From Asaia bogorensis (GTDB lineage Bacteria; Pseudomonadota; Alphaproteobacteria; CACIAM-22H2): a stretch of DNA of 64,000 bases. A model generated the notes under the pieces. That model searched no databases and had not been told where the DNA came from. It saw only the letters and a list, made by a program, of their open reading frames with translations. The translations under genes were made by a program, and so were the position numbers. The stretch spans positions 2,066 through 66,065 of the forward strand of contig CAMDLT010000020.1 of assembly GCA_945901855.1 (NCBI GenBank), in the 5' to 3' direction. Shown piece by piece: positions 1-31,291 of the stretch; within the stretch, counting starts at the first letter, position 1; the number at the start of each line of letters is the position of its first letter.

Positions 1-2
1 TT

Positions 3-411: not shown

Positions 412-1674
412 CTAGAAGCGCGGCCGTTTGGAGCTCCAGTCGGGTCGGTATTTGCGCATCTCCTTCGCATCGTCCCGGATGCGAATGCCGCAATCCAGAT
501 ATTGCCGGTGCAGCGTTGCCAGCGCCGCGCGGTCGAGCGTGACGCCGAGTCCAGGCCCCGGCGGCGGCGCGAGGCTGCCGCCCTCGAATTCCAGCTTGCC
601 GCCCGCGATCACCTCTTCGACCTGCCAAGGATAGTGCGTATCGCAGGCGTAGGCGAGATTGGGGATCGTCACGCCGACATGCGTCATAGCGGCAAGGCTG
701 ATGCCCATATGCGAATTCGAATGCATCGAAATGCCGAGCCCGAACACGCGCCCGATCTGGGCCAAATGCTGGGTCGCCCGCAACCCGCCCCAATAATGGT
801 GGTCGCTGAGGACAACTTGCACGGCGTCGAGCCGCACCGTCTTGGGGATATGGCCGAACGCGATCGTCACCATGTTGGTGGCCAGCGGCATCGTTGCGAA
901 TTTTGCAACTTCGCCCATCTCGTCGAGGCTGCCGACCGGATCTTCCAGATATTCGAGCAGCCCGTCGAGTGCGGGCATCAATCGACGCGTTGTTTCGACC
1001 GACCAGCCGCCGTTGGGATCGATCCGCAGCGGATGGTCGGGGAACGCGGCGCGCAGATGGCGCAGCGTTTCGATTTCAAAATCGGGCTCGAACACGCCGG
1101 CCTTCAGCTTGATCGATCCGAAGCCGCATTCCCGCACCATGCGCTGGGTCTGCGCGACGATCTGCTTGTGGTCGATTGCCTCGCCCCAATCGTCGGCGGG
1201 ATAGCCGGGATCGTCTTTGTGGCGCTCGAACTTGTAGAACAGATAGGCGCTGTAGGGCACGCGCTCGCGCACTTTGCCGCCCAGGATCTGCCAGAGGGGC
1301 AGGCCCGCGATCTGGCCCTGCAAATCCAAAAACGCGACTTCGAAGGCGCCGACGGCACTCGCCAGCGCCTTGTCTCCCGCAGAAGGGTAAGTCTGGCCTT
1401 CGAAGGAAGCGCCGGTCAGCGCCTCGTAGCCGCGCGCGGCAAGCCCATTCAGATCGAACGGACTGAGCCCGATCAATCGCGGCCCGATCTTGGCGAGATT
1501 CGCCAAAGTTTCGAGATCGCCGTAGCTCTCGCCAAGACCGATACGGCCGTCGTCCGTTTCGATCTCAAGGATGCTGCGCAGCGCCCAAGGCTCGTGCACG
1601 CCGACGACGTTTAAAAGCGGCGGATCGCGGAACGCGATCGGCGTGATGCGGAATGCTGCGATGCGCGGGCTCAT
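412..1674 (-). CDS. gudD: D-glucarate dehydratase, enolase superfamily.
   Basis: 420 aa. The N-terminus MSPRI..ITPIAFRDPPLLN..GVHEP..LEIETDDGRIGLGESYG, YLFYK, and the expected length fit GudD. Its start overlaps the udh stop, implying translational coupling. Confidence 0.85.
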   Translation of the reverse strand: MSPRIAAFRITPIAFRDPPLLNVVGVHEPWALRSILEIETDDGRIGLGESYGDLETLANLAKIGPRLIGLSPFDLNGLAARGYEALTGASFEGQTYPSAGDKALASAVGAFEVAFLDLQGQIAGLPLWQILGGKVRERVPYSAYLFYKFERHKDDPGYPADDWGEAIDHKQIVAQTQRMVRECGFGSIKLKAGVFEPDFEIETLRHLRAAFPDHPLRIDPNGGWSVETTRRLMPALDGLLEYLEDPVGSLDEMGEVAKFATMPLATNMVTIAFGHIPKTVRLDAVQVVLSDHHYWGGLRATQHLAQIGRVFGLGISMHSNSHMGISLAAMTHVGVTIPNLAYACDTHYPWQVEEVIAGGKLEFEGGSLAPPPGPGLGVTLDRAALATLHRQYLDCGIRIRDDAKEMRKYRPDWSSKRPRF

Positions 1675-2483
1675 CGGGCGCGCGCCGGACGCAAGGGGGT
1701 GGCATATTCGGCCGAGCAGAAGGGGCCGCCCTGGTAAAGCAGCGAAACCTCGTCTTGATTCGCCTTCTTCTCGCCTTCTTCGGCGGCTGCGACGTGGTCG
1801 TCAGACGTGTCTTGGGGCTTGTAGCCTAGGCGAAACGCGTTCGAATTGTCGTACCAGGCGCGTGCGTTGTTTGAAATTCCGTAGACGATTTCGCAGCGAA
1901 TCTCGGGATGTTCGAGGCCGATCGCGATCAGCTGGGCCAAATCGCGGCCGCTGATCCACAGCGACAAGGCACGCCTCGTTTCGGGAACAAACGCGGCATT
2001 GCCGATACGGACATTCAGCGTCTCGACGCCGAATTTGTCGGCGTAGAGCGCCGAAAGCGCCTCGCCCCAGCATTTGCTGAGTCCGTAGCGCGAGTCGGGG
2101 CGGATGTCGGCGCGATGGTCGATCTTTTCGCTGCGCGCATGGAACCCGACCGCGTGGTTCGAGCTGCCAAAGACGATCCGCTTGGTGCCCTGGCGACGCG
2201 CGGCTTCGTAAACATTGTAGGTGCCGACGATGTTTGCCTGAAGAATTTTGTCGAAATCGTATTCGACCGACAGCGCGCCCAAGTGGATGACCCTATCCAT
2301 ACCCGTCATCGCTTTTTCGACCGCAGCCATATCGGAAAGATCGCACGGCATGCTCTCTTCGCCGGGCGCAAGATCGCCGATCGGATTGAGGTCGCTCAAG
2401 CGGAGGGTTTCGAACCGTCCTGCAAACTCGCGGCGCAATCGTCCGCCGATATGGCCCGCTGCGCCGGTCATCAATACCTTCAT
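1671..2483 (-). CDS. udh: Uronate dehydrogenase, NAD-dependent; SDR/epimerase fold.
   Basis: 270 aa. MKVLMTGAAGHIGGRLR...DLSD..AV..GMDRVIHLGA.SVE..F..ILQANIVGTYNVYEAARRQG..RIVFGSSNH..G...YG.SKCWGE aligns along its length with Agrobacterium/Pseudomonas Udh. Confidence 0.8.
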   Translation of the reverse strand: MKVLMTGAAGHIGGRLRREFAGRFETLRLSDLNPIGDLAPGEESMPCDLSDMAAVEKAMTGMDRVIHLGALSVEYDFDKILQANIVGTYNVYEAARRQGTKRIVFGSSNHAVGFHARSEKIDHRADIRPDSRYGLSKCWGEALSALYADKFGVETLNVRIGNAAFVPETRRALSLWISGRDLAQLIAIGLEHPEIRCEIVYGISNNARAWYDNSNAFRLGYKPQDTSDDHVAAAEEGEKKANQDEVSLLYQGGPFCSAEYATPLRPARAR

Positions 2484-2582
2484 GCCGTTCCTCCCCGTGT
2501 TTGCGCGAAACTTTAGCCGGGATCCGAGCGGGGCGGAAGCGCTAATATATTAGCGCTCGACGATACGGCCCGATCTGCTAGA

Positions 2583-3305
2583 GTGCGCGTCATGGCCGAA
2601 GCCCTCGTCCGCCCGCGCAGCGCCAGATTGCGTTCGCTCCGAAAAGCCGCAGTACCGCGCGCGTTCGAGCAATTGCGCGAAGCGATCGTATCGCTGACTT
2701 TGGCGCCGGGCACGGTACTGTCGCGGACAAAGCTCGCGCGCCAGCTCGGCGTGAGCCAGACGCCCGTCCGCGACGCGCTGATGCGGCTTGCTGCCGAAGG
2801 GCTTGTGGAGGTGTATCCCCAGCATGCCACGGTCGTCAGTCTCATCGACCTGACGGCGGCGCGTGCGGCCCATTTTCTGCGCCGCGCGATCGAGCTCGAA
2901 ATCGTTCGCGAACTTGCGATGTCGCCCGATTCCAAGGTCGTTGCCGAACTGCGCGCGTCGCTTGATCGCCAGCGGCGCATCGCAAAGGCCGGCGAGCTCG
3001 GCGCTTTCGCGCACGAAGACCAGGCATTCCATCGCCGCATGTACGAAGCGCGCCAAGTTTTAGACTTGTGGCATTTGGCACGCCGCCAAAGCGGCCAGAT
3101 CGACCGACTGCGGCGCTTGCATTTGCCGGCCCTTGGCAAGGTGCAGATCATTCTCGACGACCACCAGGCGATCGTCGACGCGATCGCCGAACGCCAGCCC
3201 GAAGTAGCGCAGGCATTCTTGCGAAAGCATCTTTCGGGCACGCTTGCCAAGATCGAAAGCCTGAGCGCGCGCTTTCCCGAGTACATCCGCAAAACGCCCG
3301 ATTGA
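2583..3305 (+). CDS. GntR-family transcriptional regulator, FCD/FadR subfamily.
   Basis: N-terminal wHTH (LSRTKLARQLGVSQTPVRDALMRLAAEGLV) plus a C-terminal helical FCD-like domain. It is divergent from udh-gudD and sits upstream of the ABC importer. The start could instead be 2592. Confidence 0.8.
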   Translation: MRVMAEALVRPRSARLRSLRKAAVPRAFEQLREAIVSLTLAPGTVLSRTKLARQLGVSQTPVRDALMRLAAEGLVEVYPQHATVVSLIDLTAARAAHFLRRAIELEIVRELAMSPDSKVVAELRASLDRQRRIAKAGELGAFAHEDQAFHRRMYEARQVLDLWHLARRQSGQIDRLRRLHLPALGKVQIILDDHQAIVDAIAERQPEVAQAFLRKHLSGTLAKIESLSARFPEYIRKTPD

Positions 3306-3379
3306 CACACTGATATATTACAGCCTAAATACAGTTCATTCGAAGCGTCGGAAAGGCGCTCGAGCAACGGGAGGAAACC

Positions 3380-5335
3380 ATGGCCGATATCGAAGACACC
3401 TCTTTCGAAAGCGCCGTTTCACGCCGCCATTTGCTGCAAGGTGCGGCAAGCGTCGCGGTACTGGCGGCCGCGCCGACGCTCGTCGCGGCACAGGCTGCGC
3501 CCAAGGAAGCGCCTGAACTCGCGCGCATGGTTGCCGAGGGACGCCTGCCGCCGCTCGCCCAGCGCCTGCCGCAAAGTCCGCTCGTGATCACGCCGCACGA
3601 AACCGTCGGCCGCTACGGCGGCACGCTTCGCCGCGGTCTGCGCGGTTCGGCAGACCATAATGGCATTCTGCGCATGGTCGGCAACCAGGGCCTGGTGCGC
3701 TGGAACTTGGAATTCACGCAAGTGATGCCGAACGTTGCCGAACGCTGGGAAGTCAATGCGGCCGCGACCGAATTCGTCTTCCATCTGCGCGCGGGCATGA
3801 AATGGTCGGACGGCAAGCCTTTCACCGCCGACGACATCGTTTTCGCCATCGAAGACTGCACCAAAAACTCCGAGCTTTATCGCTCGGTGCCCTCGGTGCT
3901 GACGATTGGCGGCAAGCCCGTCGTGGCTTCGAAGGTCAGCGACACGGCCGTCAAATTCACGTTTGAAGCGCCCTATGCGATGTTCCTTGAGAACCTCGCG
4001 ACGCCGCTTGGCCAGCATCCCACGCTGTTCGCTAAGCATTATTGCAGCCAGTTCCATCCTAAGTACAACACCGGGCTCGACGCGCAAGTGCGCGCCGCCA
4101 ACATGTCGGACTGGCCGACGCTGTTCCGCGCGCGCTGCGGGGACATCGAAATTCCTTCGCGCTGGAGCAACGCCGAAAAGCCCACGCTCGACCCGTGGAC
4201 GATCGCAGAGGCCTACACGGGCGGCGCCACCCGCGTGACGATGCGCCGCAATCCTTATTTCTGGCAGGTCGATACTTCGGGCGCGCAGTTGCCCTATGTT
4301 GACCAGCTGACGATGAACATCTCCCAGGACGTCGAGTCGCTGATGCTCGATACGATTTCGGGCCGTATCGACATCCAGGACCGCCACATCGACTCGCTGC
4401 AGAACAAGCCGACGCTGTCGCAGAACATGCAGCGCGGCGCTTACCGGCTCGTCGAACTGGTCGCCTCCGGCGCGCAGCAATGCATGATCTATCTGAACAT
4501 GACGCACAAAGATCCCGCGATGCGCGCCATGTTCGCCAACAAGGAATTCCGGCAGGCGCTGTCGCTCGGCATCGACCGCAAGGAAATCATCGAGCTGGTC
4601 TATCTGGGCCAGTCGGAGCCCTATCAGACTGGGCCGCGTCCGGGCCATCCCTGGTACCATGAAAAGCTCGCGCGCCAGTTCACGGCCCACGATCCGGCCC
4701 AGGCCAACGCAATCCTCGACCGGCTCGGCTATCGGCGCGGACCCGACGGCATGCGCGTGCGTCCCGACGGACAAAAAGTATTTTTCGGCATCGACGTGAT
4801 CCCGACGCTCTATCCCGACGCGGTCGATACGCTCGAACTCGTCAAGCGTCACTGGAACGTTCTTGGCGTCGATATCAAGGTCAACACGATCGAACGGGCG
4901 CTCTACTACACGCGCGGCGACAACAACGACCACGACGCCGCAACGTGGCCCGGTCCGGGCGGTCTCGATCCGATCCTCGACGCGCGCGACTATTTGGCCC
5001 AGCATCCGCAAGGCTCGCGCTACGCCATTCCGTGGACCCAGTGGTACGTTTCGGGCGGCAAAGAGGGCATCGAACCTCCCGAAAGCCAGAAGCGTCGCAT
5101 GAAGCTGTTTGACGATGCGCGCGCAACACCCGACATCGCCAAGCGCGGCGCCGTCGTCAAGGAACTGCTGGACCTTACTGCCGATGCGTTCGAGACGATC
5201 GGCGTGTGCCTGGCTGTGAATTCGTTCGGCATCGCCAAAAACAACTTGCGCAACGTGCCGCTGAAGATGCCGCAATCCTGGAGCTGGCCCAATCCCGGCC
5301 CGGCCTTGCCGCAGCAGTTCTTCTTCTCGAGCTAG
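3380..5335 (+). CDS. ABC transporter substrate-binding protein, SBP family 5 (DppA/OppA-like), with Tat signal.
   Basis: 651 aa. Twin-arginine motif SRRHLLQGAASVAVLAA. Family-5 SBP architecture. First gene of an SBP-permease-permease-ATPase operon. Confidence 0.85.
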   Translation: MADIEDTSFESAVSRRHLLQGAASVAVLAAAPTLVAAQAAPKEAPELARMVAEGRLPPLAQRLPQSPLVITPHETVGRYGGTLRRGLRGSADHNGILRMVGNQGLVRWNLEFTQVMPNVAERWEVNAAATEFVFHLRAGMKWSDGKPFTADDIVFAIEDCTKNSELYRSVPSVLTIGGKPVVASKVSDTAVKFTFEAPYAMFLENLATPLGQHPTLFAKHYCSQFHPKYNTGLDAQVRAANMSDWPTLFRARCGDIEIPSRWSNAEKPTLDPWTIAEAYTGGATRVTMRRNPYFWQVDTSGAQLPYVDQLTMNISQDVESLMLDTISGRIDIQDRHIDSLQNKPTLSQNMQRGAYRLVELVASGAQQCMIYLNMTHKDPAMRAMFANKEFRQALSLGIDRKEIIELVYLGQSEPYQTGPRPGHPWYHEKLARQFTAHDPAQANAILDRLGYRRGPDGMRVRPDGQKVFFGIDVIPTLYPDAVDTLELVKRHWNVLGVDIKVNTIERALYYTRGDNNDHDAATWPGPGGLDPILDARDYLAQHPQGSRYAIPWTQWYVSGGKEGIEPPESQKRRMKLFDDARATPDIAKRGAVVKELLDLTADAFETIGVCLAVNSFGIAKNNLRNVPLKMPQSWSWPNPGPALPQQFFFSS

Positions 5336-5409
5336 CGCCGACGATCGCGGCCGACTCTCGTGTGCGAGGGTCGGCCGCCTTTCCCCAGGAAAAGGAAACA
5401 GACGCGCCC

Positions 5410-6396
5410 ATGCTGCGTTTCATCGTGTCGCGCCTTTTGTGGATGATCCCGTCGCTTGTGGCGTTGAGCTTTCTATCGTTCGTTCTCATCCAACTGCCGC
5501 CGGGCGATTACGTGACGACCTATATCGCCACGCTCGCCGCGTCGAACGAAGTCGTCGACCAGAACACGGCAGCCGATTTGCGCTCGCGCTTCGGGCTCGA
5601 CCAGCCGATCTATGTCCAGTACTGGAAATGGATCTACGGAATTGTCACGGAAGGAAATTTCGGCCTGAGCTTCGAGTGGCAGCAGCCGGTGTCGGAGCTT
5701 ATTTGGGAGCGCATGACGCTCACGCTGTTGCTGACCGTCTCGACGCTGATTTTGACCTGGGGAATTGCACTGCCGATCGGCGTGTTTTCAGCCGTCAAAA
5801 AATATTCGATCGGCGACTACGTCGCCACTTTTTTCAGTTTTCTGGGCCTTGCCGTTCCGAGCTTCCTGCTCGCGCTCGTGCTGATGTACGTAGCGGCCGT
5901 CCAATTCGGCCAGGAAGTCGGCGGGCTGTTCTCGGAGCCGTACAAGACCGCCCCTTGGAGCTTCGGCAAAGTTGTCGATTTGGCGGCGCATTTGTGGGTG
6001 CCGGTCGTGATCCTGGCGGTGTCGGGCACCGCGAGCCTCATCCGCGTGATGCGGGCAAATATGCTCGACGAACTCAACAAGCCCTATGTGACGACCGCGC
6101 GGGCCAAAGGGCTTTCGGAGTTTGCTTTGTTGGTCAAATACCCGCTGCGCGTCGCGCTCAACCCTTTCATCTCGACGATCGCATGGCTACTGCCCAACCT
6201 CGTGTCGGGGTCGATCATCGTGGCGATCGTCCTCAGCCTGCCAACGGCGGGGCCGATGCTGCTGCAATCGCTGATGAGCCAGGACATGTATCTGGCGGGC
6301 GCGTTCGTGCTGCTGATTTGCGCGTTGACGCTGATGGGTTCGCTTGTCAGCGACATTTTGTTGGCCCTCGTCGATCCGCGCATTCGGTTGGAGTAG
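5410..6396 (+). CDS. ABC transporter permease, DppB-like.
   Basis: MLRFIVSRLLWMIPSLVALSFLSFVLIQLPPGDY is the typical DppB/OppB N-terminus. Multi-TM. ATG placed at codon 69 of track ORF 5206..6396. Confidence 0.85.
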   Translation: MLRFIVSRLLWMIPSLVALSFLSFVLIQLPPGDYVTTYIATLAASNEVVDQNTAADLRSRFGLDQPIYVQYWKWIYGIVTEGNFGLSFEWQQPVSELIWERMTLTLLLTVSTLILTWGIALPIGVFSAVKKYSIGDYVATFFSFLGLAVPSFLLALVLMYVAAVQFGQEVGGLFSEPYKTAPWSFGKVVDLAAHLWVPVVILAVSGTASLIRVMRANMLDELNKPYVTTARAKGLSEFALLVKYPLRVALNPFISTIAWLLPNLVSGSIIVAIVLSLPTAGPMLLQSLMSQDMYLAGAFVLLICALTLMGSLVSDILLALVDPRIRLE

Positions 6397-6399
6397 CCA

Positions 6400-7523
6400 A
6401 TGGCAGCGCTTGCAGAAGGTTCGGTCGATACCAAGCAGCTTGCGGTCGCCTCGCAATGGCAGCTTTTGTGGTGGGCGTTCCGTCGTCACCATCTGGCGAT
6501 GATTGGGCTGGTGGTGGTTGCCTTCCTGTATCTGATTGCCGCTATCCCGGGGTTTTTTACGACGAACGATCCGGCGCTCCAAAACGCGCGCGCCGCTTTC
6601 CATCCGCCGCAGTCGATTCACTTCTTCGATACAAGTGCGGACGGCAGTTTCGCGATTCGACCCTATATCCATCCCTACACGCTGCGCCGCGACCCAACGA
6701 CCTTGGCGGCGAACTATATCGAAGACCGCGAACGCAAAATCTATCTGGAGTTTTTCGGCAGAGGCTACGAATACAAATTGTTTGGTCTGTTCACGGCCGA
6801 CCGGCATCTGTTTGCGTCGAGCGATCCTCGCCAGCCTTTGTTTCTGCTCGGCGCAGACCGGCTTGGACGGTGCGTGTTCAGTCGTATCATGCAGGGCGCG
6901 CAGATATCGCTGTCGCTGGGTCTTGTCGGCGTATTTCTGTCGCTCGTGATCGGCGTGGTGCTGGGCGGAATTTCGGGCTATTTCGGCGGCAGATCGGATT
7001 TCGTGATCCAGCGGGTCATCGAATTCATTCTTTCGCTGCCCACGATTCCGATCTGGCTTGCCCTTGCCGCAGCGCTGCCGCAGGACTGGCCCGCGACGAC
7101 GCAGTATTTCATGATCACGCTGATCCTGTCGTTGACGAGCTGGGCGCAACTCGCGCGCGTCGTGCGCGGACGCTTCTTGAGCCTGCGCACCGAAGAGTTC
7201 GTGGTCGCGGCACGCCTGGACGGCGCTTCGGAAGGTCGCGTGATCTTCCGGCACATGCTGCCAAGTTTCATGAGCCACATCATCGCGAGCATTACGCTCG
7301 CGGTTCCTGCCATGATCCTGGCCGAAACTTCGCTCTCGTTTTTGGGTCTGGGGCTGCAGCCGCCGACAATTTCGTGGGGCGTGCTACTGCGCGAGGCGCA
7401 GAATATCCGTTCGATCGCGACGGCGCCGTGGCTGTTTGCGCCGGGCTTTGCCGTCGTCGTCGCGGTAATGGCGCTCAATTTTCTGGGCGACGGCTTGCGC
7501 GATGCGGCGGATCCTTACAACAA

Positions 7524-7527
<4 letters not shown>
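6400..7527 (+). CDS. ABC transporter permease, DppC-like, with a long N-terminal extension.
   Basis: 375 aa. The C-terminal 280 aa are a DppC/OppC-type TMD ending ...ALNFLGDGLRDAADPYNK. Its stop overlaps the ATPase start (ATGA). Confidence 0.85.
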
Positions 7528-9218
<1,691 letters not shown>

Positions 9219-9234
9219 ACCGGGAGAACGAGAC

Positions 9235-10458
9235 GTGCGCATTGTCGATATCGAGACGTTTTTGATGCAAGTCGACGCGCCCAATCTGCGCGGCTGGGCA
9301 TCCGACGGGTCTTTCGGCACGGGCAAAATGAAGGCGGGCCTGGTCGGCACGCGCAATTGGCTGTTCGTCAAAATCCACACCGACGAAGGCATCACGGGCA
9401 TCGGCGAATGCAGCGGCTGGCCGCGCGTAATCCAGACGGCCGTGCAGGACCTGAAATCGATTTTGGTGGGCGAAGACCCGACGCATATCGAACGGCTGTG
9501 GCAGAAGATGATGAGCGCCATCATGGGTCACGGCATGACCGGTACCGTCGGCGCGGGGGCCATGACCGGCATCGACATGGCGCTGTGGGACATCAAGGGC
9601 AAGGCGCTGAACACGCCTGTATGGAATCTTCTTGGCGGAAAAATTCGCGACAAGATCCGCATCTATGCGCACGCCAACGCGCCTGAGGTCGCACTCGATC
9701 TCAAACGGCGCGGCATCAGCGCGATCAAATGCGGCGGCGTATCGGATCCCGTGCGCAAAGTTGCTGCGCTGCGCGAAGCCATCGGGGACGAGATGGATTT
9801 GATGATCGATCTGCATGGGCCGCCGTGGTTGACGCCTGCCGACGCAGCGCAAGTGGCGCGGGCGCTGGAACCCTACCGTCTGATGTTCGTTGAAGATCCG
9901 ATCGCGCCCGAAAATCTCGACGGCTTCCGGCGCATACGCGATGCCGCCAACGTGACTCTGGCAGCGGGAGAGCGTATGGCAACCGTCTACGGGCTGCGCG
10001 ATCTGATCGAAAAAGATCTGGTCGATATCGTGCAGCCCGATACGGGCCGGGCGGGCGGCATCACGCAGATGAAAAAGATCGCCGCAATGGCCGAAGCGCA
10101 TCACATCATGATGGCCCCGCATTCGGGATCGCTCGGGCCCGTCGCGGAATATGCGGCCCTCCATGTGATGGCGGCCATTCCCAACGCGTTGATTTTGGAA
10201 CGTATCGAAGACGATTGGGCGGGGCGTGCGCAAACCGTGGTTCCCCATCCGGTGCAGGAAAACGGCTTCCTCAAAGTGCCGGACGCGCCCGGTCTGGGCG
10301 TGGACATCAACGAGGAATTCGTCAAGCGCTTCCCCAGCGAATGCAACGTGTCGATTCCGGGCGCAATGAAAAGCGGCGCCTATGCCGAGGGCACTTATGA
10401 CGAGAGCGTCTATGTCCAGACGCGTCTCAAACGCGGCGTCTATTTTCCGAAAGGCTAG
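9235..10458 (+). CDS. Enolase-superfamily sugar-acid dehydratase, D-galactonate/D-mannonate dehydratase (DgoD/ManD) family.
   Basis: 407 aa. KIHTDEGITGIGECSGW, LWDIKGKALNTPVWNLLGG and IVQPD...GGIT are DgoD/ManD-family hallmarks. Substrate specificity cannot be assigned. Confidence 0.8.
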   Translation: MRIVDIETFLMQVDAPNLRGWASDGSFGTGKMKAGLVGTRNWLFVKIHTDEGITGIGECSGWPRVIQTAVQDLKSILVGEDPTHIERLWQKMMSAIMGHGMTGTVGAGAMTGIDMALWDIKGKALNTPVWNLLGGKIRDKIRIYAHANAPEVALDLKRRGISAIKCGGVSDPVRKVAALREAIGDEMDLMIDLHGPPWLTPADAAQVARALEPYRLMFVEDPIAPENLDGFRRIRDAANVTLAAGERMATVYGLRDLIEKDLVDIVQPDTGRAGGITQMKKIAAMAEAHHIMMAPHSGSLGPVAEYAALHVMAAIPNALILERIEDDWAGRAQTVVPHPVQENGFLKVPDAPGLGVDINEEFVKRFPSECNVSIPGAMKSGAYAEGTYDESVYVQTRLKRGVYFPKG

Positions 10459-10461
10459 GCC

Positions 10462-11184
10462 ATGGCATCCACATATTCGGACGCGGTGCGCGAACAGCTG
10501 TTGGGCGTAAGCACCGCGACCTTGTGCACGGCCTTGTTCAAGCGCGGTCTGCGCAACCAGTTTGTCCAGGATGTGCGCCCGCTCGCATCCGATTTGCCCA
10601 ATATGGTCGGGCCTGCCTACACGCTGCGCTACATCCCCGCGCGCGAAGACTTGAACACCATCGCCGTGTTCCAGGATCGCGCGCACCCGCAGCGCAAGGC
10701 GGTCGAAGAATGTCCGCCCGGTTCCGTGCTGGTTATCGACAGTCGCAAGGATGCGCGCGCAGCGTCGGCGGGCGGAATTCTGGTCTCGCGCTTGATGAAG
10801 CGCGGCGTTGCCGGCGTCGTGACCGATGGCGGCTTTCGCGATTCGCCCGAGATCGCGGCGCTGCCTTTTCCTGCCTACCACCATCGTCCGTCCGCGCCGA
10901 CGAACCTGACGCTGCACCAGGCCGTCGATATCGGCCTGCCGATCGCCTGCGGCGATGCGGCCGTGTGGCCAGGCGACATAATTGTCGGCGATCGCGAGGG
11001 CGTGATCGTGATCCCCGCGCACCTCGCAGCGGAGATCGCCGCCGAGGCTGTCGAGATGACGGCGTTCGAGGATTTTGTGTTCGAAAAGATTCTCGAAGGC
11101 CGCTCGATTATCGGTCTCTATCCGCCGACCGACGACATTTCGAAAACCGATTTTGCGGCCTGGCGCATCGCCAAGAACCGCTAG
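10462..11184 (+). CDS. RraA-fold protein (RraA / 4-hydroxy-4-methyl-2-oxoglutarate aldolase / oxaloacetate decarboxylase family).
   Basis: 240 aa. The central region GSVLVID...ASAGGILVSRLMKRGVAGVVTDGGFRDSPEIAAL is typical of the RraA/MenG-like swivelling beta/beta/alpha fold. It lies between two enolase-superfamily genes. Confidence 0.7.
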   Translation: MASTYSDAVREQLLGVSTATLCTALFKRGLRNQFVQDVRPLASDLPNMVGPAYTLRYIPAREDLNTIAVFQDRAHPQRKAVEECPPGSVLVIDSRKDARAASAGGILVSRLMKRGVAGVVTDGGFRDSPEIAALPFPAYHHRPSAPTNLTLHQAVDIGLPIACGDAAVWPGDIIVGDREGVIVIPAHLAAEIAAEAVEMTAFEDFVFEKILEGRSIIGLYPPTDDISKTDFAAWRIAKNR

Positions 11185-12356
11185 ACGTAGCCCGTGCTGC
11201 CGTCGGGTTTGGTCGGTACCTTGCGCTCCCAGTGGACATATCCGTCGCTCTTCAGCACATCTTCGTCGATTTCGACGCCCCAGCCCGGCCGCGCGGGCCG
11301 CAATTCCAGGTGACCGTCTTTGGGCAGATACGGATCGCGAACATAGGGCGCGCCCGCGGAAGGATCGGCGACTTTGTCGTAGTTCGAGCCATGCGGCAGG
11401 CGGTATTCCAGAATTTTGAAATTCGGCAAAGCCGCGCAGAAATGCAGGTTGACCGCAGTGGCAAGCGGACCCATCGGATTGTGGGGGGCTACCGTCACGT
11501 AGTGCGCTTCGGCCAGGGCTGCGATCTTGCGCATCTCCGACAAGCCGCCGACCACGCAGATATCGGGCTGCACGATGTCGGCGCCGCGCACCTGCAGCAG
11601 GCGCAGAAACTCGAAGCGATTATAGAGGCATTCGCCCGTGGCAAGCGGGCAATCGAGCCGCGCTTTCAGAGCACCCCATGCGTCGATGTTTTCCGGCCGG
11701 ATCGGTTCCTCGAAAAACAGCGGATCGTAGGGAGCGAGCGCGTTGCCAAGCTGCACGGCCTGGATCGGTTCGAAGATTTTGGCGTGCGCGTCGAACGCTA
11801 TTTCGTAGTCGGCGCGAACGGTCTCGCGCAGTTTCGAGAAATAAGCCGCGCTTTCGCGCACGACATCGCCCCAGCGCTGGCGGTGAATGTCGCCGCGATA
11901 GGGGCTGAGCTTGAATGCGGTGAGCCCCCAATCGCCGGCAAGCTGGTCGAACGTGTCGCGCGCGATCAGCGGGTCCGGGGCGGTATAGACCCCCGCATAG
12001 ACGCGTACGCGGTCGCGGACATGGCCGCCCAGCAGCTGGTAGACGGGCACACCCAGCGCCTTGGCCGAAACATCCCACAAGCAATGATCGATCGCCGAAA
12101 TCGCCGCCAGGCCCAAGGCGCCGGGCGGAAACCGGCTCTGTTGCAACAAATAGAGGTTCAGATACTCGATACGTCGCGGGTCTTGGCCCGCCAAAAAGAG
12201 CGCCAGATACTCAAGCAGCGGGATCAAGGCGCGATCGGGGCCGTGATTGTAGCACTCCCCCCATCCGGTGATGCCCTCGTCGGTGTCGATCGCAACCAGT
12301 ACGCGCGGCCGATCCTTGTCGCGTGTCATGAAGGCCCTGAGGCGTTGAATTTTCAT
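11181..12356 (-). CDS. Enolase-superfamily sugar-acid dehydratase, DgoD/ManD family, second paralog.
   Basis: 391 aa from MKIQRLRAF. AIDTDEGITGWGECYN, CLWDVSAKALGVPVYQLLGG, IVQPDICVVGGLSE. It is convergent with the preceding two genes. It is the 3' part of 821-aa shadow ORF 11181..13646. Confidence 0.8.
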   Translation of the reverse strand: MKIQRLRAFMTRDKDRPRVLVAIDTDEGITGWGECYNHGPDRALIPLLEYLALFLAGQDPRRIEYLNLYLLQQSRFPPGALGLAAISAIDHCLWDVSAKALGVPVYQLLGGHVRDRVRVYAGVYTAPDPLIARDTFDQLAGDWGLTAFKLSPYRGDIHRQRWGDVVRESAAYFSKLRETVRADYEIAFDAHAKIFEPIQAVQLGNALAPYDPLFFEEPIRPENIDAWGALKARLDCPLATGECLYNRFEFLRLLQVRGADIVQPDICVVGGLSEMRKIAALAEAHYVTVAPHNPMGPLATAVNLHFCAALPNFKILEYRLPHGSNYDKVADPSAGAPYVRDPYLPKDGHLELRPARPGWGVEIDEDVLKSDGYVHWERKVPTKPDGSTGYV

Positions 12357-12431
12357 AAATCGATTTTGCACCGCGCGCGGGCGGAAGGCAACTTCCCGCG
12401 CGCACAGGAACGGGATAATCTTTCTGCAGTC

Positions 12432-13796
12432 ATGCCGTTCTCGCCGCTCGATTCCCAGATCTTTGGCCCGCTTTTTGTGCCCGATGCGATGGTTGCCGTT
12501 TTCGGCGACGACGCTTTGCTGGCAGCGATGCTGCGCGCCGAAGCCGCGCTGGCAAAATGCCAGGCGCGTTTGGGACTTGTCCCGCCAAGTTTGGCAACCG
12601 CGATCGAGGCAATCGCGCCCGCCGCCTTTGACAAGGCGGCGCTGGGGGCCGCGACGGCGCTGGCGGGTGTGCCGACAATCCCCTTCGTGAAGGCGCTGCA
12701 AAAACTGCTGCCTGCCGACCTCGAACCCCATCTTCATCTTGGCGCAACTTCGCAGGACATTCTCGATACCGGCCTTGCGCTGCAGATGACGGTTGCGTTC
12801 GATCTGCTGGCGGCCGATCTGGCGGATTTGCTTGCGGCACTCGTGCGCCGCGCGCGCCGCCATGCGGATATGCCGTGCATCGCGCGCACCTACGGCCAAC
12901 ACGCCGCGCCGATCTCGTTCGGCTTCAAGGTTGCCGTGTGGCTCGACGGCATTTGCGATGCAGCCGCCGAGCTTGCGCATCGCCGCGAGATCACGTGCCG
13001 AGCTCAGCTCGGCGGGCCGGTCGGCACGCTTGCGGCTTTTGGCGACAAAGGTCCTGCGCTGTTGGCCGACTTCGCGGCCGAGCTTGGACTTGGCGTGCCG
13101 ACGATCGCGTGGCACGCCAGCCGCGTCAATTTGGTCGGGACCGCCCAGTGGCTTGCAGTTCTCGCGGGCACATGCGCCAAAATGGCGGGCGATGTCGTGG
13201 CGCTCGCCTCGAGCGAGGTCGGCGAGGCAAGTGAACCGCATGTGCCTGGGCGTGGCGGATCGTCGGCGATGCCGCACAAGCGCAACCCGATCGCTGCCGT
13301 TGCTATTTTGGCGAATGCGCAGGCGGCCGCTGGACTGGCTGCGGGATTGAGCGGCAGCTTGGTCGCGGCGCACGAGCGTCCGGCAGGCGCGTGGCATGCT
13401 GAGTGGCATGCGATCGCATCGCTTTTCGGGTGCGCTGCGGGTGCGCTTGCGCATGCGCGCGCGCTGGCCGAAGGGCTTGCCATCGATCCAGCAGCGATGG
13501 CCCGCAATGTGGATCTGACGCGCGGGCTCGTTTATGCCGACGCGGCAGCCGCGGCGCTGGCGCCGACGCTCGGTCGCAGCGCCGCACATGCTTGCGTCGA
13601 AGCAGCGGCAGACAGCGTTCGGCGGACGGGCACGACGCTGCAGCACGCATTGGCAGCCTCCCAGACGGTGCTTTCGTCCGCGGAACTTGCCGCGATTTTC
13701 GATCCGTCGGCAGCGGTAGCTGCTGCTGCCCGTTGGGTCGAGCCAGTCGCACGACGCGCTGATGCGCTTGCAGCCCGGCTGTGCGTGCGGGCATAG
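12432..13796 (+). CDS. pcaB: 3-carboxy-cis,cis-muconate cycloisomerase (fumarate-lyase class I family).
   Basis: 454 aa from MPFSPLDSQIFGPLF. HLGATSQDILDT and the lyase-I signature GSSAMPHKRNP. It is the 3' part of shadow ORF 10524..13796. Confidence 0.8.
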   Translation: MPFSPLDSQIFGPLFVPDAMVAVFGDDALLAAMLRAEAALAKCQARLGLVPPSLATAIEAIAPAAFDKAALGAATALAGVPTIPFVKALQKLLPADLEPHLHLGATSQDILDTGLALQMTVAFDLLAADLADLLAALVRRARRHADMPCIARTYGQHAAPISFGFKVAVWLDGICDAAAELAHRREITCRAQLGGPVGTLAAFGDKGPALLADFAAELGLGVPTIAWHASRVNLVGTAQWLAVLAGTCAKMAGDVVALASSEVGEASEPHVPGRGGSSAMPHKRNPIAAVAILANAQAAAGLAAGLSGSLVAAHERPAGAWHAEWHAIASLFGCAAGALAHARALAEGLAIDPAAMARNVDLTRGLVYADAAAAALAPTLGRSAAHACVEAAADSVRRTGTTLQHALAASQTVLSSAELAAIFDPSAAVAAAARWVEPVARRADALAARLCVRA

Positions 13797-13804
13797 TGCA
13801 AGCC

Positions 13805-14959
13805 ATGCCGATCTTGAAAATCGTCGCGCGTGAAATGTTTTACGACCTGACAGGTCCCGCTCAAGCGCCTGTCATTTTGTTTTCCAACTCTTTGGGCGCT
13901 ACCGTCGAAATGTGGGATGGGGTGGTTCGCCTCCTGGCGCCATTTTATCGCTGCCTGCGTTACGACACGCGCGGTCACGGGCGCTCGCCTGTGCAGCCGG
14001 GGGCTGCGACCATCGCCGATCTTGCCGACGATGTCATAGAACTGCTGGATGCGCTTGGAATCGACCGGGCGCATGTCGTCGGGCTGTCGATGGGCGGCAT
14101 GATCGCGCAATCGCTTGCCGGGCGTTATCCTGCGCGCGTCGATCATGTAGCGTTGCTGGCGACTGCGCCTTCGTTGCCGCCACCGGAGAATTGGTTCGCC
14201 CGCGCGCAGACGGTACGGGCGCAGGGTATTGGCGCCATTGTCGACGCCACGATGCTGCGCTGGTTTTCGCCAGATGCGGACCCGGCACTTGTTGCGATAT
14301 CGGCCGCACAATTCTCAAAAATCGACGGCGAGGGGTACGCGATCGCTTGCGAGGCGATTGCGCGCCTCGATCTGCATGCCAATTTGCCGGCCATCAAGGC
14401 GCCGACGCTTGTTGTGGCAGCGTCGTCCGATCCCGTCACGACCGTCGCGATGGGCCGGGAGATGGCAGCTTCGATTTCCAGTGCACGATTTGCCGAAATC
14501 GACAATGCCGCGCATCTTTTTGCGATCGAGCGGCCAGACGAGACGGCTGCAGTATTGCGCGAATTTCTGCCCGCCGCATCGCGCGCGGAAGATTCCGATT
14601 ACGCCGAAGGCCTTGCCAATCGCAAGGCCGTGCTGGGCGTCGATCACGTGCAACGCTCGCTCCAAAAAGCGGGCGCATTTGGCCAGCCCTGGCAGGAATT
14701 CATCACGCGTCTTGCATGGGGCGAAACTTGGGGCGATGCGACGTTACCGTTCAAAACGCGCTCGCTCGTCACGCTGGCGATGATGATCGCGCTCGGCCGC
14801 GAGGCCGAGTTCAAGCTGCATCTGCGCCCGGCGCTCAAAAATGGCGTAACGCCTGCGGAATTGCGCGCCTTGATGATGCATGCGGCCGTCTATGCGGGCG
14901 TGCCGGCCGTCAACGGTGCGTTTGCGGCCGTGCGCGAAGAATTGGGCGATCTCGTATGA
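13805..14959 (+). CDS. pcaL: Fused 3-oxoadipate enol-lactonase / 4-carboxymuconolactone decarboxylase (PcaL-type PcaD-PcaC fusion).
   Basis: The N-terminal alpha/beta hydrolase domain has GLSMGG. The C-terminal CMD domain (...ANRKAVLGVDHV...TRLAWGETWGD...MMHAAVYAGVPAV) is PcaC-like. The stop overlaps the pobA start. Confidence 0.8.
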   Translation: MPILKIVAREMFYDLTGPAQAPVILFSNSLGATVEMWDGVVRLLAPFYRCLRYDTRGHGRSPVQPGAATIADLADDVIELLDALGIDRAHVVGLSMGGMIAQSLAGRYPARVDHVALLATAPSLPPPENWFARAQTVRAQGIGAIVDATMLRWFSPDADPALVAISAAQFSKIDGEGYAIACEAIARLDLHANLPAIKAPTLVVAASSDPVTTVAMGREMAASISSARFAEIDNAAHLFAIERPDETAAVLREFLPAASRAEDSDYAEGLANRKAVLGVDHVQRSLQKAGAFGQPWQEFITRLAWGETWGDATLPFKTRSLVTLAMMIALGREAEFKLHLRPALKNGVTPAELRALMMHAAVYAGVPAVNGAFAAVREELGDLV

Positions 14960-16143
14960 GCGTCCAACGCACCCAGGTCGGCATTGTCGGTGCCGGGCCT
15001 GCCGGCTTGCTGCTGTCGCATCTGCTGCATTTGAACGGGATCGCTTCGGTCGTGCTCGAAGACCGGTCGCGTAAATATGCCGAAGAACGCATCCGCGCGG
15101 GCGTGATCGAACAGGGTGTTGCCGATCTACTGGTCGATGCGGGCATCGGTGCGCGCCTGCAGCGCGAGGGGCTGCGCCATACTGGCGTCAAACTTCACTT
15201 CAAGGGTGCAAGCCACCGCATCGATCTGGCCGATCTGACGGGCGGCAAGGCGGTTACGGTCTATGGCCAGCACGAAGTCGTCAAAGACCTGATTGCGGCG
15301 CGCCTCGCAGTCGGCGGCGAAATCCGCTTCGAGGCCAAGGTGACGGCCGTGCGGGAATTTAAAACCGACGCGCCGCAGATCGACTATGTCGAAAACGGTA
15401 CCGCCCAAACGCTGCTTTGCGACTATGTCGCGGGCTGCGACGGTTTTCATGGGCTGTGCCGTCCGGCCGTGCCTGCGGGCGAGTTGCAATTCTTCGATCG
15501 GCAATATCCGTTCGGATGGCTGGGGATTCTGGCCAAAGTGCGGCCTGCGTCCGAGGAACTGGTTTATGCCCGCCACGAAGACGGCTTTGCGCTGCTCTCG
15601 ATGCGATCGAGCGAGATCAGTCGGCTCTATCTGCAGTGCGAACCCGACGACGAAATTGCCAACTGGCCCGAAGCGCGTATCTGGAGCGAGTTGCACCGGC
15701 GCTTGGGAAATGCGGGCGAGCACGCATTGGCGGAGGGGCCGACGCTGCAAAAAGGCATTACGGCGATGCGAAGCTTCGTGACCGAACCGATGCAAAGCGG
15801 GCGTCTGTTCCTGGCCGGCGATGCGGCCCATATCGTGCCGCCGACCGGTGCCAAAGGCATGAATCTGGCGATTTCCGACGTGCGCTTGTTGGCACGCGCG
15901 ATCGAAACGCATGCCAAACGGGGCGATGCGCAACGCCTCGAAGCCTATTCGCAGACGGCGTTGCGGCGTATCTGGAAAGCGCAGCGTTTTTCGTGGTGGA
16001 TGACGTCGCTCTTGCACAAATTCGGCGACGAGACCCCGTTCGACGAACGCCGTCAGTTTGCCGATCTCGACTATCTGGTGGCATCGAAAGCAGCTTTGAC
16101 CAGTTTGGCTGAAAATTATGTCGGTTTGCCTTTCGACGATTGA
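14956..16143 (+). CDS. pobA: 4-hydroxybenzoate 3-monooxygenase, FAD-dependent.
   Basis: 395 aa from MSVQRTQVGIVGAGPAGLLL. CDGFHG and the GDAAHIVPPTGAKGMNLA motif. The length is as expected for PobA. It is the 3' part of shadow ORF 13912..16143. Confidence 0.85.
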   Translation: MSVQRTQVGIVGAGPAGLLLSHLLHLNGIASVVLEDRSRKYAEERIRAGVIEQGVADLLVDAGIGARLQREGLRHTGVKLHFKGASHRIDLADLTGGKAVTVYGQHEVVKDLIAARLAVGGEIRFEAKVTAVREFKTDAPQIDYVENGTAQTLLCDYVAGCDGFHGLCRPAVPAGELQFFDRQYPFGWLGILAKVRPASEELVYARHEDGFALLSMRSSEISRLYLQCEPDDEIANWPEARIWSELHRRLGNAGEHALAEGPTLQKGITAMRSFVTEPMQSGRLFLAGDAAHIVPPTGAKGMNLAISDVRLLARAIETHAKRGDAQRLEAYSQTALRRIWKAQRFSWWMTSLLHKFGDETPFDERRQFADLDYLVASKAALTSLAENYVGLPFDD

Positions 16144-19163: not shown

Positions 19164-20468
19164 TTAGCTGCCCCAAGTCTCGGCGGTCGTCGAGGCGTAC
19201 CAGCCTTCGGCATAGTGGGCTTCCTGCAAGCGGAACTGTACGGCATTGGCGGGCGCACGCGGGCTCACGCCGCCGGCCCCTTGCACAGCGACGATGCCTT
19301 GGATTGTTGGACGATATACGTCTGCAACCGAAATTCCATAGTCCGGCGCGATCAGCGAGTAGCAGGTATTGGCAAAAACAGCTCCCGGCGTCGGCTGGCC
19401 GTTGAGAGCGGCGGCGATCGCTTTGGCGACGAACTTGCCTTGGCTGGAGGCGGCAAAACCGGATTTGGGCATCGCGCCTGCGATCGCCGCATCGCCGATG
19501 ACGTACACGTCTTTGGCGCGTGTCGATTCGAACGTGAAAGGATCGACCGGGCACCAGCCGGCCATTGCGCCCTCGGTGGCAGCGAGCCCAGCATCGCGCG
19601 CGATGCTGCCCGCATATTGCGGCGGTACGATATTGGCGACCGACGCCTTGTGAACCTCGCCGAACTCGGAGGTTAGCGTGAGTTCGGCGGGATCGACGCG
19701 CACGACCTTGCCGTCTTTGCCAAGCGGAACCCATTCGATCATGGCGCCGTATTGGCTTTGCCAGCCGTCCTGGAACAGGCCCTGTTTGGAGAACGCGTCC
19801 TTGGAGTCGAGCGCCAGGATCTTGGAGCGCGGTTTATTTTGTTTCAGATAGTGCGCCACCATCGCGATGCGCTCGTAAGGGCCGGGCGGGCACCTGAACG
19901 GGTTGTTGGGAATCGACATCACGAATGTGCCGCCGTCGGGCATCGCTTCCAACTGGCGACGCAGCAGCACGGTTTGGGTACCTGCCTGCCAGGCGTGTGG
20001 CATGCGCTCAACTGCGGATTGCGTGTACCCTTCGAGGGCACCGAAGCGGATATCGATGCCCGGCGAAAGTACGAGCCGGTCGTAGCGCACGACATTGCCG
20101 CCGCTGGTACGGACGGTTTTCGCGCTCGTATCGATAGCGACCGCGCTTTCGCGGATATGGCGCACGCCATGTTTGCCCGTCAGGGCCGCATAATTGTGCG
20201 TGATATCGGTCATCTGTTTGAAGCCCGATAGCACATAGTTGGAAAATGGGCAGGTCTGGAACTCTGATTTGGGCTCGATCAAGGTAACGGAGAGGCTTGG
20301 GTCTTCGAGGCGCAAAAATTTAGCGGTCGTGGCTCCGCCAAAGCCGCCGCCGACGACAACAACGCGCGCTTTGCCTGCCGGCTCCGATTGGATGGCGCAG
20401 GCCGACAGAGCCGTCGTGGCGAGTACGGAACCTGCAAAGGCGCGACGCGAGAGCATTAATTTGGCCAT
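19164..20468 (-). CDS. fccB: Flavocytochrome c sulfide dehydrogenase, flavoprotein subunit (FccB/SoxF family), Tat-exported.
   Basis: Tat motif SRRAFAGSVLATTALSA. FAD-binding VVVVGGGFGGATTAKFL. Family pattern throughout. The start is taken at the internal M (MAKLML). Confidence 0.8.
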   Translation of the reverse strand: MAKLMLSRRAFAGSVLATTALSACAIQSEPAGKARVVVVGGGFGGATTAKFLRLEDPSLSVTLIEPKSEFQTCPFSNYVLSGFKQMTDITHNYAALTGKHGVRHIRESAVAIDTSAKTVRTSGGNVVRYDRLVLSPGIDIRFGALEGYTQSAVERMPHAWQAGTQTVLLRRQLEAMPDGGTFVMSIPNNPFRCPPGPYERIAMVAHYLKQNKPRSKILALDSKDAFSKQGLFQDGWQSQYGAMIEWVPLGKDGKVVRVDPAELTLTSEFGEVHKASVANIVPPQYAGSIARDAGLAATEGAMAGWCPVDPFTFESTRAKDVYVIGDAAIAGAMPKSGFAASSQGKFVAKAIAAALNGQPTPGAVFANTCYSLIAPDYGISVADVYRPTIQGIVAVQGAGGVSPRAPANAVQFRLQEAHYAEGWYASTTAETWGS

Positions 20469-31277: not shown

Positions 31278-31291
31278 CGCAGCCGCCCGCC

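Follow-up and report, generated by a model that had tools for sequence, protein, structure and literature searches.

The 64-kb window analysed here, 64,000 nucleotides of contig CAMDLT010000020.1 from the Asaia bogorensis assembly GCA_945901855.1, contains a 12-kb sugar-acid module in which a gene for an RraA-like protein lies between the genes for two dehydratases of the enolase superfamily, here called D1 and D2 (Table 1). Genes were found by listing open reading frames (ORFs) combined with codon statistics and Pfam searches, and the three genes that an earlier sequence-only reading of this DNA had singled out, D1, the RraA-like gene and D2, all lie where it had placed them and are real genes, not chance ORFs. 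As that reading had also described, D1 and D2 are paralogous (about 35% mutual identity) and convergent with the RraA-like gene between them, and a GntR/FCD regulator and a Dpp-type ABC importer, with Pfam domains found in all parts, are encoded directly upstream of D1. In the public gene call the regulator has 237 aa. Sequence beyond the window was read from the ENA metagenome contig ERZ27280227:k141_2550991 (180.9 kb), which is 99.99% identical and in reverse orientation; loci in other genomes are referred to by numbers beginning with L.

Table 1. Features of the sugar-acid module and further sugar-acid genes of the window
Feature	Position	Strand	Evidence or location
GlucD-like enolase-superfamily enzyme, 420 aa	412..1674	-	TIGR03247 score, best structure 4IT1
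Uronate dehydrogenase (Udh) homologue, 270 aa	1671..2483	-	Pfam Epimerase/SDR; Udh structure matches
Candidate GntR operator, perfect palindrome CTAATATATTAG	2542..2553		udh/gntR divergent promoter region
GntR-family regulator with FCD domain, 237-240 aa	2583..3305	+	Pfam GntR and FCD; alternative start 2592
Second operator-like site CTGATATATTAC	3310..3321		upstream of binding-protein gene
Family-5 (Dpp/Opp-type) periplasmic binding protein, 651 aa	3380..5335	+	PF00496 E=2e-60
Two ABC permeases	5410..7527 (about 5410-6396 and 6400-7527)	+	Pfam BPD_transp_1, OppC_N
Fused double ABC ATPase, 564 aa	7524..9218	+	two ABC_tran domains and oligo_HPY
D1, enolase-superfamily acid-sugar dehydratase, DgoD-like, 407 aa	9235..10458	+	MR_MLE_C E=6e-62, MR_MLE_N E=1e-22
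RraA-like gene, FlDet-type RraA-fold enzyme (predicted), 240 aa	10462..11184	+	PF03737 E=3e-33
D2, enolase-superfamily dehydratase, 391 aa	11181..12356	-	MR_MLE_N and MR_MLE_C (MR_MLE_C E=1e-55)
IlvD/EDD dehydratase	51406-53148	-	
2-Keto-3-deoxy-galactonokinase (DGOK)	61653-62558	+	
D-2-hydroxyacid dehydrogenase	62546-63586	+	

The RraA-like protein falls into NF006093, an unnamed ('hypothetical protein') subfamily of PF03737, with a score of 343.9 bits against a cut-off of 208 bits. FlDet, a protein of Flavobacterium sp. UMI-01, likewise passes this model (341.1 bits), and the two proteins align without a gap along 236 of 240 residues, at 63% identity and 79% positives (E=2e-106); the FlDet sequence (LC519890) was machine-read from Supplementary Fig. 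8 of PMC8563752 and may contain single-residue errors. The window protein fails the models for RraA itself, scoring 47.1 bits against a cut-off of 136 for NF006875 and 39.5 against 123.8 for TIGR01935, and has 240 aa as opposed to 161-164 aa in the RraA structures. It also fails both models for HMG/CHA aldolase (HMG, 4-hydroxy-4-methyl-2-oxoglutarate; CHA, 4-carboxy-4-hydroxy-2-oxoadipate), with 83.3 bits against 179 for NF006731 and 63.2 against 304.5 for TIGR02798. The closest solved structure is that of Streptomyces coelicolor RraAS2 (PDB 5X15; 108 bits, residues 12-238). Close relatives form a very large, strongly conserved family of at least 8000 sequence clusters, of which the best 120 are all at least 79% identical, and the closest named genomes are those of Rhodospirillales such as Tagaea and Telmatospirillum (80-81% identity). 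Among the relatives listed, the database name, where one is given, is 'ribonuclease activity regulator RraA'; among the 45 plasmid homologues listed, the named ones are all called RraA except one from Streptomyces, called 'dimethylmenaquinone methyltransferase'.

Three residues of the RraA-like protein, R126, D127 and E203, are invariant in an alignment of 11 family members; their counterparts in HMG/CHA aldolase (3NOJ) are Arg-123, Asp-124 and Glu-199. In the aldolase, Arg-123 is essential and stabilises the enolate, and Asp-124 and Glu-199 are acidic metal-binding residues (PMC5065237). The window protein and FlDet also have in common four family-specific blocks, TLRYIPARED, HPQR, DSRKDxRAASAG and RPSAPTNLTLH. 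Positions 105 and 130 covary in 11 of the 11 members, such that Asp105 goes with no acid at position 130 and Gly, Ser or Asn105 with Glu or Asp130: the window protein, with G105 and E130, is one of eight members of the second type, and FlDet, with D105 and S130, is of the first type together with two proteobacterial members. This covariation fits two alternative metal-binding motifs and matches those that Mazurkewich and colleagues reportedly described in 2014.

The sequence-only reading had allowed for a regulatory RraA that lacks the catalytic residues of HMG/CHA aldolase; all three are retained in the window protein. Because it fails the RraA models, is close to FlDet and keeps these residues, we take it to be most likely an enzyme and not a regulator. 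It might nevertheless be a regulatory RraA that inhibits RNase E, or else decarboxylate oxaloacetate in general, unrelated to the neighbours among which it lies by chance; this would agree with the public name of the protein and its relatives, and RraA-like proteins with this motif are said to decarboxylate oxaloacetate (again in the 2014 work of Mazurkewich and colleagues). We regard this as very improbable, given the scores and length cited above, an intact active site, the mere 3 bp that separate the gene from D1 and the linkage to sugar-acid dehydratases that is conserved in most of the 80 species surveyed below.

FlDet is an RraA-family protein of 237 residues; 2-keto-3-deoxy-glucarate was the substrate by which its activity was tracked during purification (Nishiyama et al. 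2021, PMC8563752). Both the purified and the recombinant enzyme convert this substrate to α-ketoglutaric semialdehyde, seen with the recombinant protein as a product of m/z 129, which is then oxidised to α-ketoglutarate by the dehydrogenase FlDeg (PMC8563752). The enzyme is stimulated by Mg, Co and Ni, and its substrates do not include 2-keto-3-deoxy-gluconate (KDG), its 6-phosphate (KDPG), 4-deoxy-L-erythro-5-hexoseulose uronate (DEHU) or 4-hydroxy-2-oxoglutarate (PMC8563752). Of the 'aldolase or decarboxylase' activity proposed earlier, homology to FlDet thus makes the decarboxylation likely, coupled with dehydration and leading to α-ketoglutaric semialdehyde, and the aldol cleavage not likely. 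Nor does such a protein amount to a new and unusual pathway solution, as had been suggested, because this enzyme type was published in 2021 for alginate catabolism (PMC8563752).

An aldolase would nonetheless be in keeping with several features of the locus. A metal-dependent (class II) pyruvate aldolase, similar in role to GarL and producing pyruvate together with tartronate semialdehyde or another aldehyde, would have the HMG/CHA-aldolase fold with the enolate-stabilising Arg and the metal ligands, all of which are kept here, and no semialdehyde dehydrogenase is encoded nearby. Furthermore, 2-hydroxyacid dehydrogenases, which could reduce such an aldehyde, adjoin the Sinorhizobium meliloti homologues and are found within about 4 kb in L032, L056, L066 and L088. 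We consider this explanation quite unlikely, however, since pyruvate is not the product of the 63%-identical FlDet, whose m/z 129 product is oxidised by FlDeg to α-ketoglutarate (PMC8563752), since both HMG/CHA aldolase models fail, and since genes for aldehyde dehydrogenases (ALDHs) adjoin several homologues, among them the copies at L093 and L094.

The enzymes encoded around the RraA-like gene are related to known sugar-acid enzymes to different degrees. D2 matches PDB 4JN7/4JN8 with 662 bits (E=4e-198) and is 72-79% identical to proteins encoded on plasmids of Agrobacterium (72%), Rhizobium, Neorhizobium and Bosea. On the basis of this similarity D2 is probably a galactarate dehydratase of the 4JN7 / GalrD-III type; the structure 4JN7 is presumably that of the characterised protein A9CG74. 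The statement that the substrates of both dehydratases are unknown therefore needs to be narrowed, because the 72%-identical orthologues of D2 on Agrobacterium and those on Neorhizobium plasmids are named 'galactarate dehydratase' by NCBI; it stands for D1, which has no close characterised relative and matches its best solved structure with only 207 bits. Similarly, the description of D1 and D2 as DgoD/ManD-family dehydratases is right as to the enolase superfamily, both having MR_MLE domains, but D1 (281.4 bits) and D2 (263.9 bits) both fall below the cut-off of the DgoD model NF010624 (311 bits). Orthologues of D1 with 70-91% identity adjoin the same transporter in 12 loci.

Of the 'udh-gudD' pair in the earlier description, udh does encode a genuine Udh homologue, which matches 3RFT/3RFX (named 'uronate dehydrogenase'), 3AY3 and 6MFH with 221-227 bits over residues 2-260 (225 bits to 3RFT/3AY3); this assignment is based on full-length similarity to characterised Udh enzymes and not on a curated cut-off. 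The supposed gudD product is not a true glucarate dehydratase but only GlucD-like: it scores 223.8 bits against the TIGR03247 cut-off of 828.7, its best structure is the 'putative glucarate dehydratase' 4IT1 (487 bits), as opposed to about 180-207 bits for true GlucD structures, and it groups with the uncharacterised 4IT1/3VDG/3VA8/3VC5 set (441-487 bits).

The usual enzymes for the following step are missing. The sequence-only reading had seen neither KdgD (5-dehydro-4-deoxyglucarate dehydratase, EC 4.2.1.41, of the DapA/NAL family) nor GarL, and this holds across the whole window: tblastn of the full 64 kb produced no match to DapA-family, KdgD, HpcH, ALDH, lactonase or FAH proteins, and none of the DapA/KdgD, HpcH/GarL, ALDH, lactonase and FAH families appeared in Pfam scans of about 50 of the 54 predicted window genes. 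No other candidate for the KdgD step was found within the window; KdgD or a semialdehyde dehydrogenase may still be encoded elsewhere in the genome. The protein encoded by an ALDH gene 8 kb to the left of the window is no more than a distant relative of the cluster-linked ALDHs in L093 and L094, and a linkage to α-ketoglutaric semialdehyde dehydrogenase like that of FlDet and FlDeg is not seen in the window or in window-type loci. The window has no ALDH gene for the final oxidation, and therefore that step must be encoded elsewhere.

We surveyed the neighbourhoods of RraA-like genes at 80 loci, each in a different species, using a set of query proteins to score them. Two contexts dominate: the window-type module, consisting of genes for the GlucD-like enzyme, Udh or a Gfo/Idh/MocA dehydrogenase, GntR, the Dpp-type transporter, D1, the RraA-like protein and D2, and an arrangement in which an IlvD/EDD dehydratase gene lies directly upstream of the RraA-like gene. 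Seven loci contain the GlucD-like, transporter, D1 and RraA-like genes (L009, L012, L013, L015, L016, L033 and L053), and in an eighth window-type locus, L010, the sequence ends on the GlucD-like side. These eight come from six Rhodospirillales and two betaproteobacteria, the latter with the genes rearranged into one co-directional row. The proposed co-occurrence of the three genes in related genomes is thus borne out, as D1 and the RraA-like gene occur together in eight other alpha- and betaproteobacterial loci and D2 is present in all of them except L015. GlucD-like orthologues are 73-84% identical in 7 of the 8 loci; Bosea L001 has the GlucD-like gene (78%) and no RraA-like gene. The binding protein is 90-92% identical in Tagaea and Telmatospirillum, and the identity of GntR orthologues is 67-83% in window-type loci, as against 48-62% for those beside IlvD-RraA pairs. 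Searches for DapA-family genes gave no hit either in the window or in any of the eight window-type loci.

The IlvD/EDD loci often also encode a TctC-type binding protein, Ldh_2, 2-hydroxyacid dehydrogenase and ALDH, and the one IlvD/EDD partner that was tested passes the L-arabinonate dehydratase model (1138 bits, cut-off 882). Of all 80 loci, 11 have an ALDH gene no farther than about 7.5 kb from the RraA-like gene, and in 7 the two are direct neighbours. On an annotated plasmid of Rhizobium ruizarguesonis the operon runs from an araD-type dehydratase through L-talarate/galactarate dehydratase (666 bits, cut-off 500), the RraA-like protein (67% identical) and an NADP aldehyde dehydrogenase to KdgD (416 bits, cut-off 278), and on one of Pseudosulfitobacter an araD-type dehydratase gene is followed by a DapA-family gene and then by the RraA-like gene, with ALDH, HpcH-type aldolase and altronate-dehydratase-family genes nearby. 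For the 75%-identical homologue on S. meliloti pSymB no published fitness or arabinose data were found in the literature; the araABCDEF operon of this species is a different locus. A 44%-identical FlDet-family paralogue on a Terrarubrum plasmid (L096 77-862, plus strand) is without the HPQR and RPSAPTNLTLH motifs and adjoins genes for an NTF2-like protein and a UxuA-type mannonate dehydratase; it probably represents a separate subfamily with another substrate.

Plasmid clusters of Agrobacterium, Rhizobium sp. K102 and Neorhizobium contain the same transporter (binding protein about 70%, permeases 73-81% identical) and GntR/FCD regulator as the window. The window-type transporter is combined with a DapA-family KdgD-like gene and a lactonase gene in L089, which has D2 only, and in L091 and L092, which have D1 and D2; L090, on the R. 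tumorigenes plasmid, lacks this transporter and pairs D2 with the GntR regulator, a DapA-family gene and a major facilitator superfamily transporter instead. The DapA-family genes of these Rhizobiaceae are KdgD-like but below the cut-off, with 146-160 bits against 278. D1 and a Udh-like gene occur in some of the Rhizobiaceae clusters, as does an SMP-30 lactonase, which usually accompanies the DapA-family gene. In strain HAMBI 540 (L099) D1 is present, and no match to D2 or to the RraA-like protein was found. From this comparison the window cluster looks like a case of non-orthologous displacement, with a Schiff-base enzyme and a putative metal-dependent enzyme occupying one pathway step. Strict mutual exclusion of the two gene types was considered and rejected, since L093, L094 and one Neorhizobium strain have both.

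On the Neorhizobium galegae VafX2 plasmid, a frameshift-split RraA/FlDet-like gene lies between the GntR and binding-protein genes (L092 2998-3788, minus strand); it is absent from the gene table of the plasmid, and the cluster also has a DapA-family gene.

The earlier proposal, in which the dehydratases' keto-deoxy product is taken over by an RraA-fold protein in place of a DapA-family (KdgD) or HpcH-family (GarL) enzyme, is supported by the FlDet homology, the conserved residues, the co-occurrence of the genes and the comparison with Rhizobiaceae. Within the data at hand, none of the three findings that the sequence-only reading had named as refuting it came up.

The operator-like sites CTAATATATTAG (2542) and CTGATATATTAC (3310) are the only motif matches in 64 kb, with 0.05 expected by chance, and both are kept in position in other window-type loci. 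The position of CTAATATATTAG is conserved in L003/L009, L012, L013, L015 and L016. The same sequence occurs in the GntR-IlvD/EDD intergenic region of L032, L051, L066, L070 and L088 (about 8145-8196), and further sites are found in L093 (10390-10401) and L094 (4262-4273 and 8539-8550), so that CTAATATATTAG is common to window-type and IlvD/EDD-RraA-like clusters in unrelated proteobacteria. Because it is conserved in both kinds of loci, its distribution suggests one regulator type, and perhaps one effector type, for both contexts.

Taken together, the genes from 412 to 12356 probably form a module for the catabolism of uronic and/or aldaric acids, in which the RraA-like protein is the predicted 2-keto-3-deoxy-hexarate dehydratase/decarboxylase that forms α-ketoglutaric semialdehyde; we hold this to be likely, if well short of certain. 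The data behind it are the genes present, their homology and synteny, the conserved residues and FlDet's published activity; what the RraA-like protein does, which substrates of which stereochemistry are used and how the genes are regulated we infer from these. The substrate would be imported by the Dpp-type ABC system, and Udh would oxidise a uronate to an aldaro-lactone or aldarate. Hexarates or their lactones would then be converted to 2-keto-3-deoxy-hexarates by D2 (galactarate-dehydratase type), D1 and the GlucD-like enzyme, and the 240-aa RraA-fold protein would act at the step of KdgD, removing water and CO2 to give α-ketoglutaric semialdehyde, which an aldehyde dehydrogenase encoded outside the window would oxidise to α-ketoglutarate. 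In this scheme the RraA-fold protein would be KdgD's 'class II' counterpart: a divalent metal, with D127, E203 and E130 as its ligands, together with R126, which would polarise the α-keto acid and stabilise the enolate, would take the place of the lysine Schiff base of the DapA family, and the chemistry would consist of β-elimination of the 4-hydroxyl and a vinylogous decarboxylation. A GntR/FCD repressor binding to CTAATATATTAG probably controls both the udh operon and the operon of the transporter, D1 and RraA-like genes.

Several observations weigh against this pathway. The search for an α-ketoglutaric semialdehyde dehydrogenase found none in the window, in the adjoining 10 kb on the left or in window-type loci. 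In L093 and L094 the RraA-like gene coexists with a KdgD or DapA-family gene, and in one Neorhizobium strain a frameshifted RraA-like copy lies beside a DapA-family gene; it may be that the two enzyme types complement each other and are not interchangeable. Upstream of D2 there is no operator motif. D2-type galactarate dehydratases presumably give a D-threo isomer, whereas the proven substrate of FlDet is the L-erythro isomer, so that the stereochemical match is uncertain. EDTA does not inhibit FlDet (PMC8563752), and the metal dependence may therefore not be strict. Finally, in 55 of the 80 loci the RraA-like gene directly follows the gene for an IlvD/EDD dehydratase (L-arabinonate dehydratase type), a partnership which hints that the family may also, or instead, handle keto-deoxy-aldonates.

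The RraA-fold protein might carry out the 4-dehydration of 2-keto-3-deoxy-aldonates, such as keto-deoxy-pentonates or -hexonates formed by D1, without decarboxylation, as an analogue of L-2-keto-3-deoxyarabinonate (L-KDA) dehydratase or XylX and not of KdgD. Apart from the frequent IlvD/EDD partner, one of which passes the L-arabinonate dehydratase model as noted above, the closest match of D1, whose gene ends 3 bp before the RraA-like gene, is D-galactonate dehydratase (just below the cut-off), and the NCBIfam model PRK12764 describes an FAH-family domain fused to this RraA-like domain. XylX-type keto-deoxy-pentonate dehydratases belong to the FAH family. Keto-deoxy-pentonates also lie outside the published substrate tests of FlDet, but the enzyme is inactive on 2-keto-3-deoxy-gluconate and diacid-specific (PMC8563752). 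Moreover, the Udh, GlucD-like and galactarate-dehydratase-type enzymes of the cluster all point to diacids, and the IlvD-linked loci commonly encode TctC-type binding proteins of the tripartite tricarboxylate transporter (TTT) family, which is known for tricarboxylate transport. A role confined to aldonates hence seems unlikely to us.

A wider view, which we put forward only as a tentative possibility, is that the module represents an undescribed hexarate/uronate branch, in which the dehydratases would give several keto-deoxy-hexarate stereoisomers, including erythro forms, and one tolerant metal-dependent enzyme would funnel all of them to α-ketoglutaric semialdehyde. The stereoisomers could come from mannuronate- or guluronate-type uronates or from glucarate dehydrated at its 'other' end. 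NF006093 would then be the general metal-dependent counterpart of both the Schiff-base KdgD and L-KDA dehydratase, under one type of GntR regulon with the operator CTAATATATTAG.

Within the module, the gap between D1 and the RraA-like gene is 3 bp, and at the palindrome CTAG (11181-11184) the RraA-like gene and D2 have overlapping stop codons, which leaves no space for a terminator between these convergent genes. The GlucD-like gene and udh overlap by 4 bp and are co-transcribed. The length of 391 aa originally given for D2 is correct, a 98%-identical homologue also having 391 aa. Its reading frame continues into the antisense of a plus-strand pcaB-type lyase gene (12432-13796; Lyase_1/ADSL_C), and an 821-aa minus-strand ORF (11181-13646), considered as a fusion protein, was rejected as an artefact with an Arg-rich N-terminal half antisense to pcaB. 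This ORF has a coding-like GC3 signal (GC content at third codon positions) and is a trap for ORF-based reading of GC-rich DNA.

The module is nested in genes of the β-ketoadipate pathway. To its left, two Dioxygenase_C genes of the pcaH/pcaG type end 1 bp before the GlucD-like gene (window 1-410; L097 11265-12507); to its right, pcaB, starting 75 bp from D2, is followed by a pcaD/pcaC fusion and a pobA-like monooxygenase gene (12432-16143). Because these are the downstream genes, we place the end of the module at 12356, and it looks like an insertion splitting a pca gene set. A link to aromatic catabolism was considered and rejected: the flanking pcaHG, pcaB and pcaD/C are of the 3,4-cleavage type, the LigK models failed and the module recurs without pca genes.

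Further sugar-acid genes lie in the distal part of the window. The IlvD/EDD dehydratase encoded there just passes the L-arabinonate dehydratase model (883.8 bits, cut-off 882), and the DGOK gene adjoins that for the D-2-hydroxyacid dehydrogenase. Genes for a family III CoA-transferase (49065-50258, plus strand), formate-tetrahydrofolate ligase (56521-58179, minus) and a thiamine pyrophosphate enzyme (58181-59869, minus) are near one another and, judging by their Pfam families only, could be an oxalate/formate module. Two more Dpp/Opp-type ABC systems with family-5 binding proteins are encoded at 35587-41256 (plus) and 43967-47363 (minus), one of them adjoining aminotransferase and glutamine-synthetase-like genes (30135-35320). 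The genes for a homologue of the flavocytochrome-c sulfide dehydrogenase flavoprotein (19164-20468, minus) and for a Sulf_transp membrane protein (22646-23653, minus) are sulfur-oxidation genes, unrelated to the sugar-acid module.

The window thus appears to hold a proteobacterial member of an enzyme type known since 2021, in a variant of a known galactarate/uronate cluster. If so, the assignment of FlDet, made in marine Bacteroidota, holds also for alpha- and betaproteobacteria of soil and freshwater, where the enzyme would operate inside classical uronate/aldarate clusters. The RraA label given to the listed relatives that have a name, in a family of at least 8000 clusters, is then an annotation issue, and D1, the 4IT1-type GlucD-like enzyme and the family of the most frequent partner, the IlvD/EDD dehydratases, are targets for function discovery.

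Among the known proteins of this fold, RraAS2 (5X15) matches the window protein through the C-terminal extension, but it is described as an RNase E inhibitor and is far less similar to the window protein than FlDet is. HMG/CHA aldolase (LigK/ProA, 3NOJ) and active RraA-like proteins such as TtRraA and Yer010c have the same fold, the essential Arg and the metal-binding Asp and Glu. In contrast to HMG/CHA aldolase, which carries out an aldol cleavage, the window protein has extra conserved segments, stands in a sugar-acid context and not one of aromatic 4,5-cleavage, and is predicted to perform an elimination and a decarboxylation. KdgD has the same predicted overall reaction and place in the pathway as the RraA-like protein, but its fold is unrelated, and it works through a lysine Schiff base where a metal-stabilised enolate is expected for the RraA-like protein.

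The galactarate-dehydratase cluster of Agrobacterium has a Dpp-type transporter and an FCD regulator as in the window. Groninger-Poe and colleagues are said to have identified Atu4196 of A. tumefaciens C58 as galactarate dehydratase III in 2014, and its DapA-family neighbour reportedly converts keto-deoxy-galactarate to α-ketoglutaric semialdehyde; we take the D2-type cluster of the Agrobacterium plasmid to correspond to this C58 cluster. Compared with it, the window has D1, Udh and the GlucD-like enzyme in addition, is without the lactonase and aldose epimerase, and encodes an RraA-fold enzyme in place of the DapA-family one.

The closest precedent is FlDet, which resembles the window protein in size (237 versus 240 aa), in full-length identity (63%), in membership of NF006093, in the catalytic Arg-Asp and Glu and in the family motifs. 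The metal motifs of the two proteins differ, being D-X20-R-D in FlDet and G-X20-R-D-X2-E in the window protein. The settings differ as well: FlDet comes from Bacteroidota and the oxidative catabolism of alginate via DEHU, its keto-deoxy-glucarate is made by a reductase/oxidase and not by a dehydratase, and its gene adjoins an alginate lyase gene and that of its own semialdehyde dehydrogenase, whereas the window copy, with no ALDH nearby, is found among Udh and three enolase-superfamily enzymes.

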